Positions 3,389 to 10,609 of a stretch of 10,609 bases of DNA are shown here, in pieces. The notes under the pieces were generated by a model, which was given only the letters and a program-made list of their open reading frames with translations, was not told where the DNA came from and made no database searches. Location: assembly GCA_002839435.1 (NCBI GenBank), contig PGYA01000016.1, positions 64,001 to 74,609 on the forward strand. Reading direction: 5' to 3'. This stretch comes from Candidatus Riflebacteria bacterium HGW-Riflebacteria-2. Lineage in GTDB: Bacteria > Muiribacteriota > Ozemobacteria > Ozemobacterales > Ozemobacteraceae. The position numbers and the translations under genes are program-made. Within the stretch, counting starts at the first letter, position 1; every line of letters starts with the position of its first letter.

Positions 3389-3976
3389 TTACAGCAGCGC
3401 TTTTAAAATCAGTGAACGGGCCTGGCTGATATTTCGCGAGACAGCTGGTGGAAAGGGCAAAACGAATACCTGCTCGGCCGTGTCGCTGACGAAGCGGATG
3501 ACGGCGCCGTTTAGCTCCCTGCCCTGCATGGCTTCGGCGAAAAAGAAGCTTTCCATATCGACCAGGCTGGCGTCGTATTTTGCGGCCAGTTGTGCGCGGT
3601 CGTCTCTGGTGATTGCCGGCTGGTCGACAGTTACAACTGCTGCCGGCGGCAGGTCGGCCGGGGCGGGCAGCTCAAGCTGACGACAAGCGTAAAAAAATCT
3701 GTTGCAACAGAACAGCTGGCCCACCTGCAGTTCGGGCGCGAGCGCTCCGGCTGCGCCAAATAGGATTATGCGTCGATAGCTGGCCTGTGTCAGTTCTCTA
3801 TCGAGCAGCGCAAACAAAGGGTCGCCGCCGGCGGCATTGGCTGTGACCAGCCGGCCACCTTTAAAAAACCAGCTTGCAGCGTCTGATTGCCGGCAATCTG
3901 GCAGGATAGCGGCCAGCAGCCTGGCTTCGGCTTTGAACGGCGCCAAAATAAGAGTCTGCGGGTCTGTCGGGCTCAT
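3389..3976 (-). CDS. MTA/SAH-nucleosidase (PNP_UDP_1) family protein, short futalosine-hydrolase-like form; candidate 5'-deoxyadenosine nucleosidase
   Basis: 195 aa. The segments ILFGAAGAL, VVTVDQPAITRDD, SLVDMESFFFAEA and AVIRFVSDTAEQ align by eye with the E. coli Pfs motifs INTGSAGGL, VSGDAFINGS, AVEMEATAIA and VRAISDVADQ. This includes the catalytic Glu in the (V/D)ME context and the Asp of the SD motif. The start overlaps the upstream gene stop by 4 nt (ATGA). Confidence 0.8.
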   Translation of the reverse strand: MSPTDPQTLILAPFKAEARLLAAILPDCRQSDAASWFFKGGRLVTANAAGGDPLFALLDRELTQASYRRIILFGAAGALAPELQVGQLFCCNRFFYACRQLELPAPADLPPAAVVTVDQPAITRDDRAQLAAKYDASLVDMESFFFAEAMQGRELNGAVIRFVSDTAEQVFVLPFPPAVSRNISQARSLILKALL

Positions 3977-5022
3977 TTCTGCAGACTCCGGTCAAGCATC
4001 TTTTTGAGATCCGCGCTGCCGAAAGTTGTGTTTTTTAGGCGTTCCCAGACTTCGGGGGTTTCCATGCACATGTAGATCGGCACGTCGACGAAGTGTTTCT
4101 GCAGACCGGCGCGGGCAAAATTGTAAATCTGCTCGCGGAAAGGCCTGAAATATCTGATCTTACCGTCAGTCGAAGGGTAAAATTCTTCGGCGAGAATGCC
4201 GGTGTCAGGGTGATATTTTTCGACGTTTTCCTGAAACCCTTTTGGGAAGCGAAAAGTGCCCAGGGAAATCCAGTTGATCTTAAGTCCGTGCAGATATTCG
4301 TGCATAAGCGCGAATACTTCTGAATAGCGTTCCTGCCAGTTCTGCAAGGGCAGTAACGGATCGAAATGAAACGCCAGCGCGCAGCCTTTTTCTCGGGCAG
4401 CCGAGGCTGCTGCATTCAGGCGCTCACGCAGTGAGGCCGCGCCATGTTCGAGGCGATCGATGTATTCCTGCGGATTCAGCGAAAAGGCCAGAGTTACGTG
4501 GCGCGCATCTTTTGCCTGCATTATTGCCTTTATATCAGAGCTTTTGCTTTTGACTTCGAGCGTGAAATCAGGCATTCCGGCGGTCCATTCAATGATCGCA
4601 GCGTTGAGCGGGAAAATTCCTTCGAGCGCGAGCGGATCGCCGAACTGGCCGGTGCCAAGTCTGATTGGCCCGCTGATGCGTTCGCGCAGGTCGATGATTT
4701 CTCGGCGGCAGTCTTCCCAGTTCAAGAAAAGTGTTACATCGCCGGCGCCGGTATAATTCTGGATTATGCAGTATTCGCACTCGAACGGGCAGCCCATCCC
4801 CCACTCCACTACCCAGTAACCGCAGCAGACGCTGCCTTTCTGACCCGGACATGGTTTTACAAACGCCCCGCGATTGAGAGTGAGCAGCAGACCATCGCCT
4901 GGATGCTGTTCGCCGCTGACTTCATGCCGCTGCTCAAATTCAATCAGGCTCTCGATCTGTTTTGCCAGCGGCAGATCCTTGACCCGCTCATCAACATAGA
5001 GGTTTTTGAAGCTCAGATTCAT
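3973..5022 (-). CDS. Radical SAM protein of the spore-photoproduct-lyase (SplB/SPL) family
   Basis: 349 aa. The N-terminal NLYVDERVKDLPLAKQIESL matches the SPL N-terminus VYIEPRALEYPLGKELKDKF of B. subtilis SplB. The radical SAM triad GCPFECEYC (C78-x3-C82-x2-C85) sits where SplB has CMGHCHYC. A second block, FSLNPQEYIDRLEHGAASLRERLNAAASAAREKGCALAFHFDPL, matches SplB FSINADYVIKNFEPGTSPLDKRIEAAVKVAKAGYPLGFIVAPI. ATG start with a 2-nt spacer after the ParB-like gene stop. Confidence 0.85.
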   Translation of the reverse strand: MNLSFKNLYVDERVKDLPLAKQIESLIEFEQRHEVSGEQHPGDGLLLTLNRGAFVKPCPGQKGSVCCGYWVVEWGMGCPFECEYCIIQNYTGAGDVTLFLNWEDCRREIIDLRERISGPIRLGTGQFGDPLALEGIFPLNAAIIEWTAGMPDFTLEVKSKSSDIKAIMQAKDARHVTLAFSLNPQEYIDRLEHGAASLRERLNAAASAAREKGCALAFHFDPLLPLQNWQERYSEVFALMHEYLHGLKINWISLGTFRFPKGFQENVEKYHPDTGILAEEFYPSTDGKIRYFRPFREQIYNFARAGLQKHFVDVPIYMCMETPEVWERLKNTTFGSADLKKMLDRSLQK

Positions 5023-5024
5023 TA

Positions 5025-5855
5025 TTAAAGCTCTTCGACGGCCGCGAAAATTGCATCGACTGCGGCCTGAGCTTCGGTTAAACGGCCGCTGTGCCGGCGG
5101 GTCAGATTGCAGGTCAGCTGCATGCCGGGTTTAGAAAACGTCTGGTCGATTTTTATGGTTATTCCTGGCGGCAGCGGGTTTTGTTCGAGGGCACGCGCGA
5201 ATTTGTCGAGCGCATCAGTTCTGCGCGGCTGCGCCAGGCGCTGCAGGTTTTCGAGTGCTTCGGCAGCATTGTTGCCGGGTAGTTTTTCTGGTAGAACTCT
5301 CTTTCGCTGGGCCTGCCGCAAAAACATCGCGATATTGCGCTTTTCAGAGACCGTGCCGGGCATGGTCAGCAGATCAAAGGCAAAAAGCTTCATGTCATCA
5401 CCAAGATGTGCAAGCTCTCGCCATATATTGAGCGGCAGATTATGCTTGCCACATTCAGGATGACAGAGCAGATTGCACCCGATAAAGCGCAGGGCAAGAC
5501 GTAGCTGGGGCGAGTCGGTGCATCCGGCCAGCTTCAACATTTCAGCATGATCTGATGGCGCACAGCTGGCAAATGCGGCTGTCAGCTCGCAAGCACTCAA
5601 CTCTCGATGACTGTTCAATTGAACAAACAGCAACGCCGGCAACCCGGTTGCTTCAATACAGGGCACACTGCTGTGCCCTAGTTCTTTAAGGGCAAGAAGC
5701 CGCCGGTGCCCGTCACAAACAGTGTTCTGAGCGATAACCAGTGGTTGTAAAACACCATTTTCTCTGATGCTGCACAACAATTTCTCTTCAACCGGCGCCG
5801 TGAATGAATCAATCAGTGGCATCAATTCATTTATCTGAACTTCAATAATTTTCAT
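5025..5855 (-). CDS. ParB/Srx-like nuclease-domain (ParBc) protein with a C-terminal extension of unknown function
   Basis: 276 aa with an ATG start. The N-terminal ~90 aa (LIDSFTAPVEEKLLCSIRENGVLQPLVIAQNTVCDGHRRLLALKELG) shows the ParB-like nuclease domain pattern (hydrophobic-DGHHR-l-A-k-lG). The remaining ~180 aa are Cys/His-containing with no motif I recognise. First gene of the three-gene operon. Confidence 0.7.
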   Translation of the reverse strand: MKIIEVQINELMPLIDSFTAPVEEKLLCSIRENGVLQPLVIAQNTVCDGHRRLLALKELGHSSVPCIEATGLPALLFVQLNSHRELSACELTAAFASCAPSDHAEMLKLAGCTDSPQLRLALRFIGCNLLCHPECGKHNLPLNIWRELAHLGDDMKLFAFDLLTMPGTVSEKRNIAMFLRQAQRKRVLPEKLPGNNAAEALENLQRLAQPRRTDALDKFARALEQNPLPPGITIKIDQTFSKPGMQLTCNLTRRHSGRLTEAQAAVDAIFAAVEEL

Positions 5856-5863
5856 GATACCGC

Positions 5864-5892
5864 ATTGTAACGCATACCGGCATCACCATCAA
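5864..5892 (-). promoter_or_regulatory. Candidate sigma70-like promoter for the ParB-like/SPL-like/MTAN-like operon; would give a near-leaderless transcript
   Basis: On the minus strand the sequence reads TTGATG-N17-TACAAT, with the -10 hexamer ending 8 nt before the ATG at 5855. No Shine-Dalgarno precedes this ATG. This assumes sigma70-type promoter rules apply to this organism. Confidence 0.25.
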
Positions 5893-6286
5893 GCAGCATA
5901 AGAGAGTTCATGGTATAACCCGCCCGCCGGCGACAGCTCGGCGGTCTGTTCTGCTCTAGTGGCCGTTACTCAACTAATTCGATCATAATCGAACTATTTG
6001 CATAAATTGTAGTTTAATTCTTTTATGATCAAATTTAATGAGCAGATCTTGTATTGGCAGATGAACCTGCTTGATTTTCTTCTTTAGCAGATAGATCCTG
6101 GAGAGCCGCGGTCTGAATTGGTCGCTGCGCAAAAAAACATACATGAAAGTTGGCTGCATCATATTCTTTTGTACGTATTTTCACTTACAGGCTGTTTGCG
6201 ACTTTTATGTAAGAATTATAGTAGTTCAGATGTAATACCTGTATGTGATTTTGGCTATGATAAGAGAAATGAATCCTCTCTGAATG

Positions 6287-6316
6287 GAGCTGCCTGCGCG
6301 GGCAGCTTCTTTTTCT
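6287..6316 (+). terminator. Canonical Rho-independent terminator (GC-rich hairpin plus T-tract) on the plus strand with no annotated upstream gene
   Basis: The stem agctgcc (6288-6294) pairs with ggcagct (6301-6307) across a 6-nt loop tgcgcg, and g6287:t6308 adds a wobble pair. The stem is followed immediately by tcttttttct. The reverse complement has no U-tract, so orientation is plus. Confidence 0.5.
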
Positions 6317-6372
6317 GAGCTATGATCCACTATTTTTAAATTTTGAGCTGTTTTGCAGCATTGCCCGCATTT

Positions 6373-6405
6373 CTAAAGAGCGCAGGGGTGAACCACGCGA
6401 AACCC
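6373..6405 (-). pseudogene. Orphan 3'-terminal remnant of an FGE-sulfatase-domain gene
   Basis: The 23 nt at 6383-6405 (caggggtgaaccacgcgaaaccc) match 22/23 with the 3' end of the FGE-domain gene (8294-8316, caggggcgaaccacgcgaaaccc). 19 nt also match the internal domain junction at 9399-9417. The minus strand here reads ...HHFGFRVVHPCAL*, against WKGFRVVRP* in the gene. The stop codon is mutated TGA to TGC and only ~14 codons are open upstream. Confidence 0.4.
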
Positions 6406-6416
6406 GAAATGATGAG

Positions 6417-6445
6417 TTGCAGATATTCAATCACCATGTTATTAT
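6417..6445 (+). promoter_or_regulatory. Candidate sigma70-like promoter upstream of the NTase-fold gene
   Basis: TTGCAG-N17-TATTAT at 6417-6445, about 37 nt upstream of the TTG start at 6483. The match is weak and assumes sigma70-type rules. Confidence 0.25.
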
Positions 6446-6482
6446 TAAGTTATACGTAAATACATTGTGGTAATAAATTATT

Positions 6483-7067
6483 TTGAATAGTCTAAGTTGC
6501 GAAAACTTAAAAGAGATTCTGAGTCGTCTCAGCGAATTGATCAGCCTTGAGACAAACCAGTGCTTTGAACTGGTTGTCTGCGGCGGTTCGGCTCTGATAG
6601 CACTTGGTTTGATTGAGCGAACTACGCGTGACATCGATGTTGTCGCTGTTGTAAAAGGCAATTTATTTGCGGACCCCGAACCCTTGCCGGCAGAGATGAT
6701 TAAAGCCGCTGCCAGAATTGCTCAATATTCAGATTTACCGGCTGACTGGTTGAACACGGGGCCTGCCGATATCTTCAGAATGGGGTTGCCAGATGGCTTT
6801 GGCAACAGGCTCGTTACCTGGCATGTCGGCAGGAACCTTGTCATACATTTTATCAGCCGGCTGGATCAGATTCATTTCAAACTCTACGCAGCAGTCGATC
6901 GCGGGGGATATCACATAACAGATCTCATGGCTCTCAACCCATGTGACAATGAAATTCTGCAGGCTGCGAGATGGGCACGAACTCATGATGTCTCTGATGG
7001 TTTCAAAGAAATGCTTGAATTCCTTTTAAAGGAACTGGGTTATGAAAGAATCATTGCTGAATTATAA
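6483..7067 (+). CDS. Minimal nucleotidyltransferase-fold (Pol-beta superfamily) protein; candidate toxin/antitoxin or defence component
   Basis: 194 aa. The NTase signature hG[GS]...D-x-D is present in ELVVCGGSALIALGLIERTTRDIDVVAV. The C-terminal helical part (HFKLYAAVDRGGYHITDLMAL) is typical of small NTase toxin/antitoxin proteins. The only in-frame start near the 5' end is TTG at 6483 and there is no clear RBS. The 3' end overlaps the next gene by 26 nt. Confidence 0.55.
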   Translation: MNSLSCENLKEILSRLSELISLETNQCFELVVCGGSALIALGLIERTTRDIDVVAVVKGNLFADPEPLPAEMIKAAARIAQYSDLPADWLNTGPADIFRMGLPDGFGNRLVTWHVGRNLVIHFISRLDQIHFKLYAAVDRGGYHITDLMALNPCDNEILQAARWARTHDVSDGFKEMLEFLLKELGYERIIAEL

Positions 7068-8076
7068 AAACCAGCTGCTGGAAAAGATGCTAAAACTTCT
7101 CTGGTCGGGCTGGGCACAGCTTGGCGTTGCAGGTTATAAACCAGTCCGCTGGAAAAGGGTTATCGACATCGAAGCCTTGATTCTGACCACATGCTTCTGG
7201 GGAAGATACGATCAACGGCTTTTTGATGAAATGCTGTCCTGGTTGCTGGCAAACGAAAGGTTTGTCAATATTCAGCGGCTCCAGACCATCATAAAAAAAG
7301 AGACTTTTCATGAACCGGGACTTCTTGGGCCAATAAGCCGCAAACTCTGCAGAAAAAATCGTACCCCGAAATGGCGTGGAATAGCAGGAAAACTGGAAAG
7401 ACAGCAGGCAGTATTACAGCCTGAAAAGCTGTTTTTGTTTCCTGATAATAAACCATTGCCTGTTATCGGCGCAGCCGACGATGATTTTGCTGAGTGCGGC
7501 TTTCTGCGACTGCCCTTTATAGATCGTCAGCTGTCGACAGACTTTACAACAGGGGTGGCGGCAACGCTGCAGCTACAGTTGCGGGCTTTTTTCGGAGTAT
7601 GTTCGCGAGCTGAAATCATGCTTGCATTTTTTATCAACAATCAGGCGAGTATAAGTGATATCGCTGCCAGCTCTTATTATTCATGGAAATCTATTCAGGA
7701 AGCTCTTTTTGAAATGTCTCATTCTGGCATTGTGAGCCATCCTGCGTCTAAGCGGGAAAGGCGTTACTATCTTGCCTCAGAAAACTGGACAAAACTGTTT
7801 ATTGGCCAGGAAACGGACTGCCCCGAAAAATTCCACTGGTGCAAATTTTTCAGCGCCATGGAAATTCTCTGGCAAAAGGTCACTAACCCTGCCTTCGGCA
7901 ATTTATCAGAGAAAAGCATGGATATTGAAATTGCAGATCTGGTAAACCAACATCTGCAAAGCCTGTTAACAGCAGCCGACGAAAATTGGCGGGTTTCTTC
8001 TCCCGCAACATCCTGTGAAAACTTCCTTGCAACTTTCTCGGCCTTTATAATCACTCAGCTTAAACAGCTTCAGTAA
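7042..8076 (+). CDS. Hypothetical protein (344 aa) overlapping the NTase-fold gene; putative cognate partner
   Basis: Long open frame with an ATG start (MKESLLNYKNQLLEKML...). Overlaps the preceding gene by 26 nt. GC appears lower than the flanks. I recognise no catalytic motif. Confidence 0.55.
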   Translation: MKESLLNYKNQLLEKMLKLLWSGWAQLGVAGYKPVRWKRVIDIEALILTTCFWGRYDQRLFDEMLSWLLANERFVNIQRLQTIIKKETFHEPGLLGPISRKLCRKNRTPKWRGIAGKLERQQAVLQPEKLFLFPDNKPLPVIGAADDDFAECGFLRLPFIDRQLSTDFTTGVAATLQLQLRAFFGVCSRAEIMLAFFINNQASISDIAASSYYSWKSIQEALFEMSHSGIVSHPASKRERRYYLASENWTKLFIGQETDCPEKFHWCKFFSAMEILWQKVTNPAFGNLSEKSMDIEIADLVNQHLQSLLTAADENWRVSSPATSCENFLATFSAFIITQLKQLQ

Positions 8077-8292: not shown

Positions 8293-10609
8293 TCAGGGGC
8301 GAACCACGCGAAACCCTTTCCAGTTGGAAGCGGAAGCCATGCCCGCGCTATAACGACTGGGGAAGTAGCTGGGGTTGCTGCCGCCGCTGCCGCCACGACA
8401 GACCCGTCCTGAAGAACCAGTTAAAGCGCCGTGATAGTCATAGACAGTATTGCTTGGGTAGTTTTCAAAAAAGTCCCAGCACCATTCAAATACGTTACCG
8501 CTCATGTCATACAGACCCAGTTCATTCGCCAGTTTTGTTCCAACCGGGTGGGTCTTGAAGCTTGAATTATCACTAGACCAGGCATAATCGCCGACGGTAT
8601 TACTGCTATTGCTGCCAGCAAATGGCTTTGCATAACCAGTTAAATTAACTCCACCGCTCACGGCACCGGGTTGACTGTCCTGGTCAGCGCCCATTGCTGC
8701 CCACATCCATTCCATTTCGGTCGGCAGGCGATAACCATTAGCCGACCAGTTGCAGGTCGCCGCATCCCAGTCGGTATTAGTAGTGGTCGGTATTGCTGCG
8801 TAGGTAAGCGTCGAAAAGTCAACGCTATTAACTTCGTAGACAGGCGTCAGGCCTTCGGCAATACTGAGTTTGTTACAGAACGCGATCGCGCAATACCAGT
8901 TTGTGAATTGCACCGGGTCGGTGACGCCATTTGAAGTCTCTGTCACGCTTGGGTCAGATCCCATAATTGCACTGAACTGCGTTCTGGTAATCTCATGCTG
9001 GCTCATTCTGAAGCCTTTGGTGATTATTGAAATATTCGCCTCATCAGAATCCCGCTGAAACGACCCCGCTGGCACATACTTCAACGTCCCGATAGTTGCA
9101 GATGAGTAGTCACCCCATATCTGCTTGGCAGAGCTGTAAACGGTGCCGCTGTAGCTGTCTTTGCCGGCGGCGGCAACACGAACGTATTTACCGCTAGCTG
9201 TTTTGGCCAGATCAACGACATAAGTATTGGTGGTGACACCTGCAATATCGGCCCAACCGGCCGAACCGTCATCGCTGACCTGCCACTGATAAGTAACGGC
9301 GGCATAACTCGGGGTCAGTGCCCCGGCGGTCAGTGTCTGACCACTCTTTGGCAAACCAGTAATGCCACCAATCTCAGTCACCGGCACAATCACTGAGCGA
9401 ACCACGCGAAACCCGAAGCCGTTGCCCTGGTAGTTCGGGCTGCTCCTGTTACGGAAGGCCACGGTAGCTTTGTCCGCGGCAAAGGCCCAGCTACCGCCGC
9501 GCATCACACGGTCCGAGCCAGTTCCAGCACCACGGTAATCGGAGTTAGAATTCTCGGGGTAAATGTTATACCAGTCCCAGCAGAATTCCCAGGCGTTGCC
9601 ACTCATATCAGAGATGCCAAGTTCATTCGCCTGTTTTGTTCCAGCAGGGTGAGTCTTGCTGCTAGCATTATCAAAATACCATGCATAATCTCCAACTGCC
9701 CCCCCCATGCCCTCGCCAGCATACGCTTTATTGTATCCGGTAGTATTGGTTGCACCAGGATTGCCTGTGTCAGCGCCCATTGCTGCCCACATCCATTCCA
9801 TTTCGGTTGGCAATCGGTAACCATCTGCAGCCCAGTTGCAGGTCGCAGCGTTCCAGGTTGGGTTGTCACTTGTCGGCACTGCACCCCAGACAGACGGATC
9901 GGTTGAGCCGCTGATAGTGTAGACCGGAGTCAGGCCTTCGGCAATGCTCAGTTTGTTACAGAATGCAATCGCATGATACCAGTTAGCCATCTGCACAGGG
10001 TCGGAGACTCCGTTCGAATAGCTTGTATTACTCGGATCAGTACCCATAATCACATTGAACTGAGCCCTGGTTATCTCATGCGCGCTCATGCTGAACGCCG
10101 AAACAAATGATGTGTTTGCCGCGGTTGCGTCACGCTGAAAGGTTCCGGCGGTAACACTTACCATGGTCGGCATTCCCAGAATCTTTTCGGCAGCACTGAA
10201 AACCTCACCACAATAAGACCCATTACCTGTAGCAACAAGCCGGACATATTGCCCTGCAGCTGATTTGGCAGGATCAACTTCATAGCTGGCTGTAACGGCA
10301 CCGGATATATCAAGCCATGCGTTAACGCCATCATTACTTACCTGCCATCTATAATCAACCGTAGCCCCAACAGGAGTTATTTCTCCAGCTGTCAGCGTCT
10401 GCCCGCTCATCGGAATACCCGTAATCGCACCTATTGCGGTCACCGGTTCAGCGGTGGCTGCAAAAACAATTGAGACCAAACCCGAGTTGGCAGCATTGGT
10501 AGAAGTTCCGCCGGCAACTGTAAAGAAGTTTTCAGCAACGCCAGTCAGCGTAAAGCCGGCCTTCGGCGTAAGAGTTACTGTCGCAGTGTAAACTGTGCCT
10601 GCAGCAAAG
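8293..10609 (-). CDS. Large secreted/surface-type protein, 5'-partial (runs off the window end): Big-like segment plus 2 x [Ig-like domain + FGE-sulfatase (SUMF1/EgtB/PvdO-type) domain]
   Basis: The ORF-track start at 10479 is a TTG. The frame stays open to 10609 (…FAAGTVYTATVTLTPKAGFTLTGVAENFFTVAGGTSTNAANSGLVS IVF…), so the true start lies beyond the window. There are two FGE-domain copies with the hallmarks GYRLPTEMEWMWAAMGAD, DMSGN(A/V)(W/F)E(F/W)CWD, RGGS and GFRVVR. Each is preceded by an Ig-like module (ITG(I/L)P(M/K)SGQTLTAG...Y(R/Q)WQVS(N/D)DG). Confidence 0.85.
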   Translation of the reverse strand, partial: FAAGTVYTATVTLTPKAGFTLTGVAENFFTVAGGTSTNAANSGLVSIVFAATAEPVTAIGAITGIPMSGQTLTAGEITPVGATVDYRWQVSNDGVNAWLDISGAVTASYEVDPAKSAAGQYVRLVATGNGSYCGEVFSAAEKILGMPTMVSVTAGTFQRDATAANTSFVSAFSMSAHEITRAQFNVIMGTDPSNTSYSNGVSDPVQMANWYHAIAFCNKLSIAEGLTPVYTISGSTDPSVWGAVPTSDNPTWNAATCNWAADGYRLPTEMEWMWAAMGADTGNPGATNTTGYNKAYAGEGMGGAVGDYAWYFDNASSKTHPAGTKQANELGISDMSGNAWEFCWDWYNIYPENSNSDYRGAGTGSDRVMRGGSWAFAADKATVAFRNRSSPNYQGNGFGFRVVRSVIVPVTEIGGITGLPKSGQTLTAGALTPSYAAVTYQWQVSDDGSAGWADIAGVTTNTYVVDLAKTASGKYVRVAAAGKDSYSGTVYSSAKQIWGDYSSATIGTLKYVPAGSFQRDSDEANISIITKGFRMSQHEITRTQFSAIMGSDPSVTETSNGVTDPVQFTNWYCAIAFCNKLSIAEGLTPVYEVNSVDFSTLTYAAIPTTTNTDWDAATCNWSANGYRLPTEMEWMWAAMGADQDSQPGAVSGGVNLTGYAKPFAGSNSSNTVGDYAWSSDNSSFKTHPVGTKLANELGLYDMSGNVFEWCWDFFENYPSNTVYDYHGALTGSSGRVCRGGSGGSNPSYFPSRYSAGMASASNWKGFRVVRP
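8296..9393 (-). repeat. Tandem duplication unit B (Ig-like + FGE domain, residues 363-728 of the visible ORF)
   Basis: Copy offset from unit A is about 1.09 kb. Long near-identical nucleotide runs support this, e.g. 8689-8721 and 9777-9809 (gcccattgctgcccacatccattccatttcggt), and 8850-8880 against 9939-9969. Confidence 0.7.
9394..10452 (-). repeat. Tandem duplication unit A (Ig-like + FGE domain, residues ~11-362 of the visible ORF)
   Basis: The two units are colinear at the protein level and match at most positions, with long identical blocks such as LTPVY, CNKLSIAEGLTPVY, GYRLPTEMEWMWAAMGAD and KTHP(A/V)GTK(Q/L)ANELG. The unit boundary falls exactly after GFRVVRS. Confidence 0.7.

Follow-up and report, generated by a model that had tools for sequence, protein, structure and literature searches.

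What does an intrinsic terminator close when no gene stands before it? The question is raised by a 10,609-nucleotide (nt) stretch of Candidatus Riflebacteria bacterium HGW-Riflebacteria-2 (contig PGYA01000016.1, positions 64,001–74,609), hereafter called the window. Between a minus-strand ParB_N-like gene (5025–5855) and a plus-strand DUF6036 gene (6483–7067) lies a spacer of 627 base pairs (bp; 5856–6482), just as a first-pass annotation of the letters had described it. That annotation proposed that a small RNA or a small hydrophobic peptide is made here, perhaps as an antitoxin. Set beside its relatives, the spacer proves to be a mosaic of historical origin, with six parts: the promoter that serves the ParB-like operon, a 60-bp palindrome, a plus-strand unit, the relic, 13 codons long, of an FGE-sulfatase gene, a junction at 6415/6416 and the promoter of a DUF6036 cassette. 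Our favoured reading of the plus-strand unit is a regulator-controlled small RNA (sRNA) of ~95 nt, set in this mosaic spacer and ended by a terminator that is no orphan, a reading whose chances we regard as evenly balanced.

The comparisons draw on related contigs and loci, designated by L-numbers. L001 is 14.7 kilobases (kb) of the source contig and was used to compare intergenic gaps and terminators; L021 is identical to L026, and L016, L017 and L018 form one lineage together with L022. The window also lies in metagenome contig ERZ27239240 k141_29977, and an identical 3.6-kb copy occurs in SRR3546455; relatives are found in SRR3546449/50 and JGI 3300010355. The spacer had been singled out as unusually long. 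It is long, with a GC content of 0.40 vs 0.52 for the whole window, but it is not unique: the intergenic gaps of L001 span 14–691 bp. Mosaic history explains its length, with ~240 bp (more than a third) made up of neighbour promoters, gene relic and cassette junction, and ~130 bp more of the small transcription unit. Read from left to right, that unit contains the following features.

6169–6190, plus strand: imperfect 22-nt palindrome, TTGTACGT-ATTTTC-ACTTACAG (TTGTAcGT-N6-ACtTACAA).
6208–6216, plus strand: putative extended -10 element, TGTAAGAAT in the window, TGTAAAAAT in L021, TGCAAACAT in L023 and GGTTAGGCT in L025.
6221–6316, plus strand: predicted non-coding transcript of ~95 nt (~120 nt in L021), with a variable 5' part, a conserved hairpin and a terminator.
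6263–6281, plus strand: invariant 19-mer, AGAGAAATGAATCCTCTCT, predicted to fold into a hairpin of 5 bp on this strand or of 7 bp, two of them G.U, on the other.
6286–6316, plus strand: intrinsic terminator, GGAGCTGCC-TGCGCG-GGCAGCTTC and then TTTTTCT, with a GC-rich stem of 9–10 bp.

The terminator stood up to scrutiny: it is a plus-strand terminator with no plus-strand gene before it, and our scan counts ten pairs in its stem. The 56-nt stretch 6270–6325 folds at -21.1 kcal/mol, a value matched by only 6 of 200 shuffled sequences, and the region holds five terminator-like sites vs 1.3 expected. It ranks among the top two terminator-like sites of L001. The other lies canonically behind a gene, and this organism therefore uses ordinary intrinsic terminators. 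Comparison with relatives shows that the stem has been maintained through base changes. The L021 terminator reads GCCACC-TGCAAA-GGTGGC and then T7, with three of nine stem pairs changed on both sides; across the four aligned sequences, 94% of the stem cells are paired. The T tract lies on the same (plus) strand in all four lineages, and read on the minus strand the hairpin has no U tract. Taken with its relatives, the terminator is thus not the orphan it had seemed: it appears to close a small plus-strand unit that predates insertion of the cassette.

Conservation extends upstream of the terminator, as the cross-genome check suggested in the first-pass annotation bore out. L021, whose ParB protein is 74% identical to that of the window, retains only four patches of the surrounding sequence: the palindromic core (6165–6219), AGAGAA(g)ATGAATCCTCTCT, the terminator, and AACCACGCGAAACCCGA. 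The core, the 19-mer and the terminator are thus conserved against L021 with unalignable segments between them, more than neutral divergence would lead one to expect, a pattern that runs a few lineages deep. Within the 19-mer, ATGAATCCTCTCT is identical in L021/L026 with both flanks unalignable; the invariant stretch measures 13–19 nt. It occurs nowhere else in the 158 kb of loci compared. The 3' side of the 19-mer is CU-rich and resembles an anti-Shine-Dalgarno sequence.

What would drive transcription of this unit? The 22-nt core is identical or nearly so in six lineages, two of which (L023 and L024/L025) came from a metagenome scan with a 21-mer of it. The core precedes lipoprotein genes in L023 (...LSIGC) and L025 (...LVSGC), which have clear lipoboxes and lie 66–140 nt downstream. 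In L024/L025 it sits ~85 nt after the stop codon of an operon encoding a HisKA_3 kinase and a NarL/LuxR-type response regulator, and the same regulator gene is also present in L021 (78% nucleotide identity). From the core to the -10-like element there are no indels and the distance is fixed in five lineages, whereas upstream of the core spacing varies; a rightward promoter is therefore the likely arrangement. The -10 hexamer has an invariant A (position 2) and an invariant T (position 6) across the compared lineages. We propose that the core is the site of a dimeric regulator, perhaps of the NarL/LuxR type, overlapping the -35 region. The dyad would be centred near -43, with a predicted start at ~6221–6224. 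Other readings of these sequences were set aside: sigma-54 and extracytoplasmic function (ECF)-type promoters do not fit the spacing of the core, as judged by eye, and a stem predicted from an 11-nt inverted repeat (6181–6191 and 6238–6248) is broken without compensation in L016 and absent from L021.

These observations suggest a working model. A dimeric regulator would bind the 22-nt palindrome and switch the promoter on, the best candidate being the NarL/LuxR-type response regulator encoded beside copies of this palindrome in related genomes. Some Riflebacteria would use the same promoter to drive lipoprotein mRNAs; in the window and three related lineages it would drive a short non-coding RNA. 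That RNA would stop at the terminator before running antisense into a convergent gene, the FGE-sulfatase gene that once converged on the unit. It would most likely be a trans-acting RNA that base-pairs with its targets, probably through the invariant AUGAAUCCUCUCU, and form the sRNA arm of a two-component regulon. A fuller version joins several further steps: a functional sRNA that evolved out of a lipoprotein gene's 5' leader, is held under NarL-type two-component control through the palindrome and uses the CU-rich AUGAAUCCUCUCU as an anti-Shine-Dalgarno seed. We offer that version tentatively, as a possibility, and with it a linked idea about cassette insertion at 6415/6416 that is described below.

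Does the unit instead encode a protein? Both open reading frames (ORFs) of the first-pass annotation exist as described, one of 66 amino acids (aa) starting on TTG (6118–6318) and one of 30 aa, hydrophobic, starting on ATG (6143–6235). Their presence is what speaks for a small protein gene. Neither survives in relatives. In L016/L022 a 5-nt indel shifts the frame of the 66-aa ORF, and the 30-aa ORF has its ATG changed to GTG and its fifth codon from TGC to TGA. No ORF is shared with L021, which is not homologous left of 6165, and the sole start codon common to all lineages, ATG AAT CCT CTC, leads to an end after four codons in the window. Both ORFs overlap the promoter core, crossing the conserved palindrome, the longer one crosses the terminator hairpin as well, and there is no ribosome-binding site. 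We consider a small protein gene highly improbable. Of the suggested plus-strand transcript ending at 6316, then, the peptide version falls away, and a non-coding RNA becomes the best reading, given the covarying terminator, the invariant 19-mer and a promoter-like element ~95 nt upstream.

Similarity searches returned no known RNA family. Rfam covariance models, proposed earlier as a check, gave no match at E ≤ 1 over the whole window. With Rfam 15 and the spacer alone at E ≤ 10, only terminator-driven hits appeared, with E of at least 1.9 and all far below gathering scores; the best reached 16 bits vs a gathering score of 50, and no family threshold was attained. A search for tRNA and tmRNA found none, megablast against E. 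coli genomes gave no match, and a scan of a genome contig collection with the ParB-like protein and with a 20-mer of the conserved block returned nothing. Three patterns run against a viral contig collection yielded zero hits.

Several results weigh against an sRNA. A scan for consensus sigma-70 sequences calls no plus-strand promoter in the region, and the predicted promoter is drawn from a weak hexamer (AAGAAT). The predicted folding energy of the RNA is unexceptional (z -1.1 to -1.7), and a long structured RNA over 6053–6420, considered on both strands and rejected (z +0.6 to -1.3), counts on the same side. Pairing within the 19-mer favours the minus strand, where G.U pairs add to it, and the L016 terminator stem carries one A.C mismatch. 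A duplex search against 11 neighbouring start regions produced no convincing target, the best (z -2.0) being a hypothetical 83-aa gene. Finally, the whole unit is found in four lineages only; three of these are close or recombinant (L022 is a mosaic), and the comparative signal therefore rests mainly on L021.

To ask what else could have preserved the unit, we turn to the DNA around it, in which two features matter.

6053–6415, unstranded: block shared with the L016/L017/L018 and L022 lineage at 89–91% identity (blastn, nhmmer and alignment).
6373–6414, minus strand: FGE-sulfatase relic, the last 13 codons, HHFGFRVVHPCAL, plus the stop codon.

The block stands out from its surroundings. Flanking operon DNA (window 3450–5893, with PNP-like, SPL-like and ParB-like genes) is only 82% identical to that of the L016/L022 lineage, whose ParB protein is 73% identical to the window's, and the 160 bp left of 6053 could not be aligned to that lineage at all. 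On L001 the gene finder places two small ORFs on the minus strand that span the block boundaries and, on this comparison, are evidently chimeric. At the position of the relic, L021 carries an intact 313-aa FGE-sulfatase gene ending in ...GFRVVCNRE and a stop; its AACCACGCGAAACCCGA patch, on the opposite strand to the unit, codes for the C-terminal GFRVV of that protein. Positions 6317–6372 are the former 3' flank of the gene. A pseudogene of the divergent genes that adjoin the ParB-like gene in relatives was ruled out, with no tblastn similarity.

The main rival to the sRNA is a relic promoter followed by an insulating terminator: the protein gene once driven by the promoter was lost, the terminator blocks antisense transcription into the FGE-sulfatase gene, and the RNA itself has no function. 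The same core drives lipoprotein genes elsewhere (L023, L025), the unit faces a convergent gene in L021, the folding is unremarkable and no target was found, all of which would follow. Insulation, however, needs the terminator alone. In the window and in L016/L017/L022 only 13 codons of the FGE gene are left, yet promoter, 19-mer and terminator are intact, and the 19-mer, even in its loop, has not changed between the window and L021, while the flanking RNA has diverged past alignment. We judge this explanation doubtful.

The convergent gene also suggests a minus-strand role, which we find less likely than a relic promoter. Both hairpins would then belong to the 3' end of the FGE-sulfatase mRNA, as terminator or stabiliser, and what reads as a T tract on the plus strand would simply be the A tract that goes with a bidirectional terminator. 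Their placement fits, 20–65 nt past the FGE stop codon (intact in L021, relic in the window). So does pairing of the 19-mer, with 7–8 pairs on the minus strand by way of G.U against 5–6 on the plus strand, and in L016/L022 a U-rich run comes after the 19-mer on the minus strand. But in no lineage does a minus-strand U tract follow the GC hairpin (AUUCAGAG in the window, UCUUGCCG in L021), whereas the plus strand always has T5–T8; the elements survive in lineages that have lost the FGE gene; and the conserved promoter-like core is left unexplained. On balance this role is unlikely. The unit is kept where the FGE gene was destroyed and no ORF is conserved, and we therefore favour the regulator-controlled sRNA, probably trans-acting and perhaps derived from the leader of another gene in its regulon.

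Could the RNA instead serve the gene to its right? The first-pass annotation had noted that sRNA antitoxins of some toxin–antitoxin (TA) families occupy such positions. The cassette and its left boundary are laid out as follows.

6416–6482, plus strand: left end of the cassette, with TTGCAG (6417–6422), 17 nt, TATTAT (6440–6445) and a leader.
6483–8076, plus strand: two-gene cassette, a DUF6036/AbiEii-like nucleotidyltransferase (6483–7067) and a 344-aa partner (7042–8076) that overlap by 26 nt.
6383–6405, unstranded: left copy of a 23-nt direct repeat whose right copy, at 8294–8316, is 96% identical.

Two arrangements of the cassette bear on this possibility. The DUF6036 gene with a 342–344-aa partner occurs in at least five other contexts (L003, L004, L005–L008, L009 and L010), and the cassettes of L003 and L005–L010 have only the last ~65 bp of the spacer (6417–6482) in common with the window. 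Positions 6416–6482 are therefore the cassette's own promoter region, and nothing further left belongs to it. L016/L017 diverge from the window precisely at 6415/6416. Conversely, L016/L017 and L021 carry the unit but no cassette. An RNA antitoxin or cis-regulatory leader of the cassette would be in keeping with the order of unit, terminator and nucleotidyltransferase gene, all on the plus strand, which resembles a type III layout. Against it stand the contexts in which cassette and unit occur apart, the gene relic and recombination junction that separate the two, the cassette's own promoter and winged-helix protein partner, and the lack of a tandem repeat array: Tandem Repeats Finder (TRF) at a minimum score of 30 found no tandem repeat between 5800 and 6550. 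The distribution of unit and cassette excludes the antitoxin RNA in our view, leaving it the slimmest of chances.

The same junction records how the locus was assembled. The FGE relic ends at 6415/6416, precisely where the cassette promoter starts, and L017 shares both the relic and its cut point, after which its sequence differs. L022 is 97% identical to L016 on the left, is window-like from the terminator rightward and carries the DUF6036 cassette; lineages therefore recombine across this locus. After the identical breakpoint lie the DUF6036 cassette in L022 and unrelated sequence in L016 and L017. These alignments indicate cassette turnover and inter-lineage recombination at a fixed junction. 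A search for an empty site, comparing the L017 tail beyond the junction with the far side of the cassette, gave no match.

The right copy of the 23-nt repeat lies in the 3' end of an intact FGE-sulfatase gene, so that the two copies bracket the DUF6036 cassette. They could be a target duplication or could reflect paralogy of the GFRVV motif in two FGE paralogues. In three of five independent contexts, the window among them, the cassette is bracketed by direct repeats of host sequence, the other two being at 4695–4773 and 6493–6571 in L005 (79 nt, 91%) and at 4604–4668 and 6602–6666 in L009 (65 nt, 98%), whose contig ends inside its repeat. Each bracketing repeat is the 3' end of an adjacent gene, of which one intact copy is kept. 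The junction at 6415/6416 may thus mark an unrecognised mode by which small integrase-less defence cassettes insert into gene ends. The FGE-sulfatase-domain protein on the far side (8293–10479, minus strand, and beyond, L001 11811–14732) is at least 973 aa long with two FGE domains, and self-comparison of the contig shows internal DNA repeats of ~130 nt and ~340 nt at this large gene.

Of the two cassette proteins, the DUF6036 product (194 aa from a TTG start, with homologues of the same length) matches PF19502 above cutoff and gives weak PF08843 and PADLOC AbiEii hits; our literature search found no mention of DUF6036. The 344-aa partner (7042–8076) matches no family in Pfam, NCBIfam, PADLOC or PHROGs. 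Its structure model (predicted local distance difference test, pLDDT, 90; predicted template modelling score, pTM, 0.91) is helical with a central winged-helix domain at about residues 165–255. Matches of this domain to ArsR/MarR regulators are weak (E 0.016–0.3, below the usual 0.001 cut-offs), and a recombinase or nuclease fold was looked for in the model and not found. The partner probably provides the DNA-binding or antitoxin half of an AbiE-like pair whose gene order is reversed.

On the left, the first-pass annotation had seen a second putatively mobile, defence-like module; its picture of two such modules was only half right. The left operon (3389–5855, minus strand) encodes a ParB/Srx N-domain protein, an SPL-like radical SAM protein and an MTA/SAH-nucleosidase-like protein. 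Its synteny is kept in relatives, with YkuD and TPR genes downstream, and the ParB-like protein has only 32 detectable homologues, whose source names, where given, are mostly Riflebacteria. By its conserved synteny and narrow range the operon is therefore best described as a lineage-specific chromosomal one, with no obviously mobile module. We would guess at a role in DNA or nucleotide modification or repair. Two features of the spacer go with it.

5864–5892, minus strand: promoter of the ParB-like operon from a promoter scan, -35 TTGATG (5892–5887), 17 nt, -10 TACAAT (5869–5864).
5976–6035, unstranded: extended 60-nt palindrome, 24% GC, from an inverted-repeat search.

TACAAT lies 8 nt before the ParB-like ATG at 5855, and the mRNA should therefore be near-leaderless. 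TTG(A/C)T(G/A)-17-TACAAT is kept in five lineages read directly (the window, L011, L016, L020 and L027), and L014, L019 and L021 can likewise be aligned over the first 38–60 nt ahead of the ParB-like gene. Between this promoter and the palindrome, a second terminator-like hairpin on the plus strand (5924–5944), CCGCCGGCGACAGCTCGGCGG and then a weak T tract, sits in a GC-rich (59%) segment (5894–5968) that is genome-specific and aligns with no relative.

The palindrome contains the inverted repeat gatcataa...ttatgatc that had earlier been pointed out as a possible operator. The repeat is real; its left arm lies at 5981–5988, not 5972–5979, and the gap is 34 nt, not 43. With its right arm at 6023–6030, it forms the centre of 13-nt arms, AATTCGATCATAA and TTATGATCAAATT (5976–5988 and 6023–6035), and of the 60-nt palindrome as a whole. 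The palindrome is also present ahead of the ParB-like gene in L020, L011 and L027 (four lineages with the window), at a distance from the ParB-like ATG that varies from 138 to 295 nt, and is absent from L014, L016, L019, L021 and L022. Of its 22 consensus pairs, two show changes on both sides, C-G to T-A and A-T by way of G.T to G-C, and it pairs slightly better on the plus strand. As a possible operator it is a conserved and probably functional dyad, but one that travels with the ParB-like gene and is independent of the terminator unit. It is probably a protein-binding dyad or hairpin linked to the ParB-like operon, and it could be a parS-like site for the adjacent ParB-N protein or a hairpin in RNA. 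In L020 (1–216, minus strand) and L023 (95–598, plus strand), an AAA-ATPase gene with a Walker-type GKS motif lies between the ParB-like palindrome and the sRNA core region. The window seems to have lost that gene, so that the palindrome joins the block directly at ~6040–6053.

How does the unit compare with known systems? Trans-acting sRNAs that combine a transcription-factor site with a Rho-independent terminator include OmrA/OmrB under OmpR, MgrR under PhoP and RyhB under Fur. Like these regulon sRNAs, the candidate is ~100 nt long and has no ORF, its own predicted promoter and an intrinsic terminator. Its putative regulator palindrome is the best-conserved part, the same site lies upstream of protein genes of the presumed regulon, and a seed could be provided by a short invariant motif, single-stranded or in a loop. 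It shows no sequence or covariance similarity to them (for OmrA-B, 14.9 bits vs a gathering score of 40, E 5.1), and its host belongs to an uncultured candidate phylum.

Type III TA loci consist of ToxI repeats, a terminator and toxN. The window shares with them a non-coding unit and terminator upstream of a toxin-like gene on the same strand. It differs in having no tandem repeat array and no co-occurrence with the toxin gene, in a toxin-like gene for an AbiEii/DUF6036 nucleotidyltransferase and not a ToxN/AbiQ endoribonuclease, and in the junction and cassette promoter that lie in between. As in AbiE (type IV) pairs, the cassette couples an AbiEii-like nucleotidyltransferase to an overlapping gene with a weakly matched winged helix; unlike them, it places the nucleotidyltransferase first, and the partner matches no AbiEi family in the four databases named above. 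The GC hairpin between the plus-strand unit and a minus-strand gene (ancestral, intact in L021) recalls the terminators of convergent genes, although a symmetric bidirectional terminator would not have its U tract on one strand only.

Comparative dissection can thus account for a long, seemingly empty spacer, and this locus is a record of how DNA recombines and cassettes turn over between closely related uncultured strains. If expressed, the plus-strand unit would represent an sRNA family that Rfam lacks, from a phylum for which metagenomes are the only source. If the 19-mer is its seed, complementary target sites would be AGAGAGGAUUCAU-like and lie at ribosome-binding sites. A regulator hypothesis is ready to hand in the palindrome common to lipoprotein promoters beside a two-component system, and the regulon would be definable by genome scanning. 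Should this reading be true, the unit would be the first defined regulon sRNA in the candidate phylum Riflebacteria.

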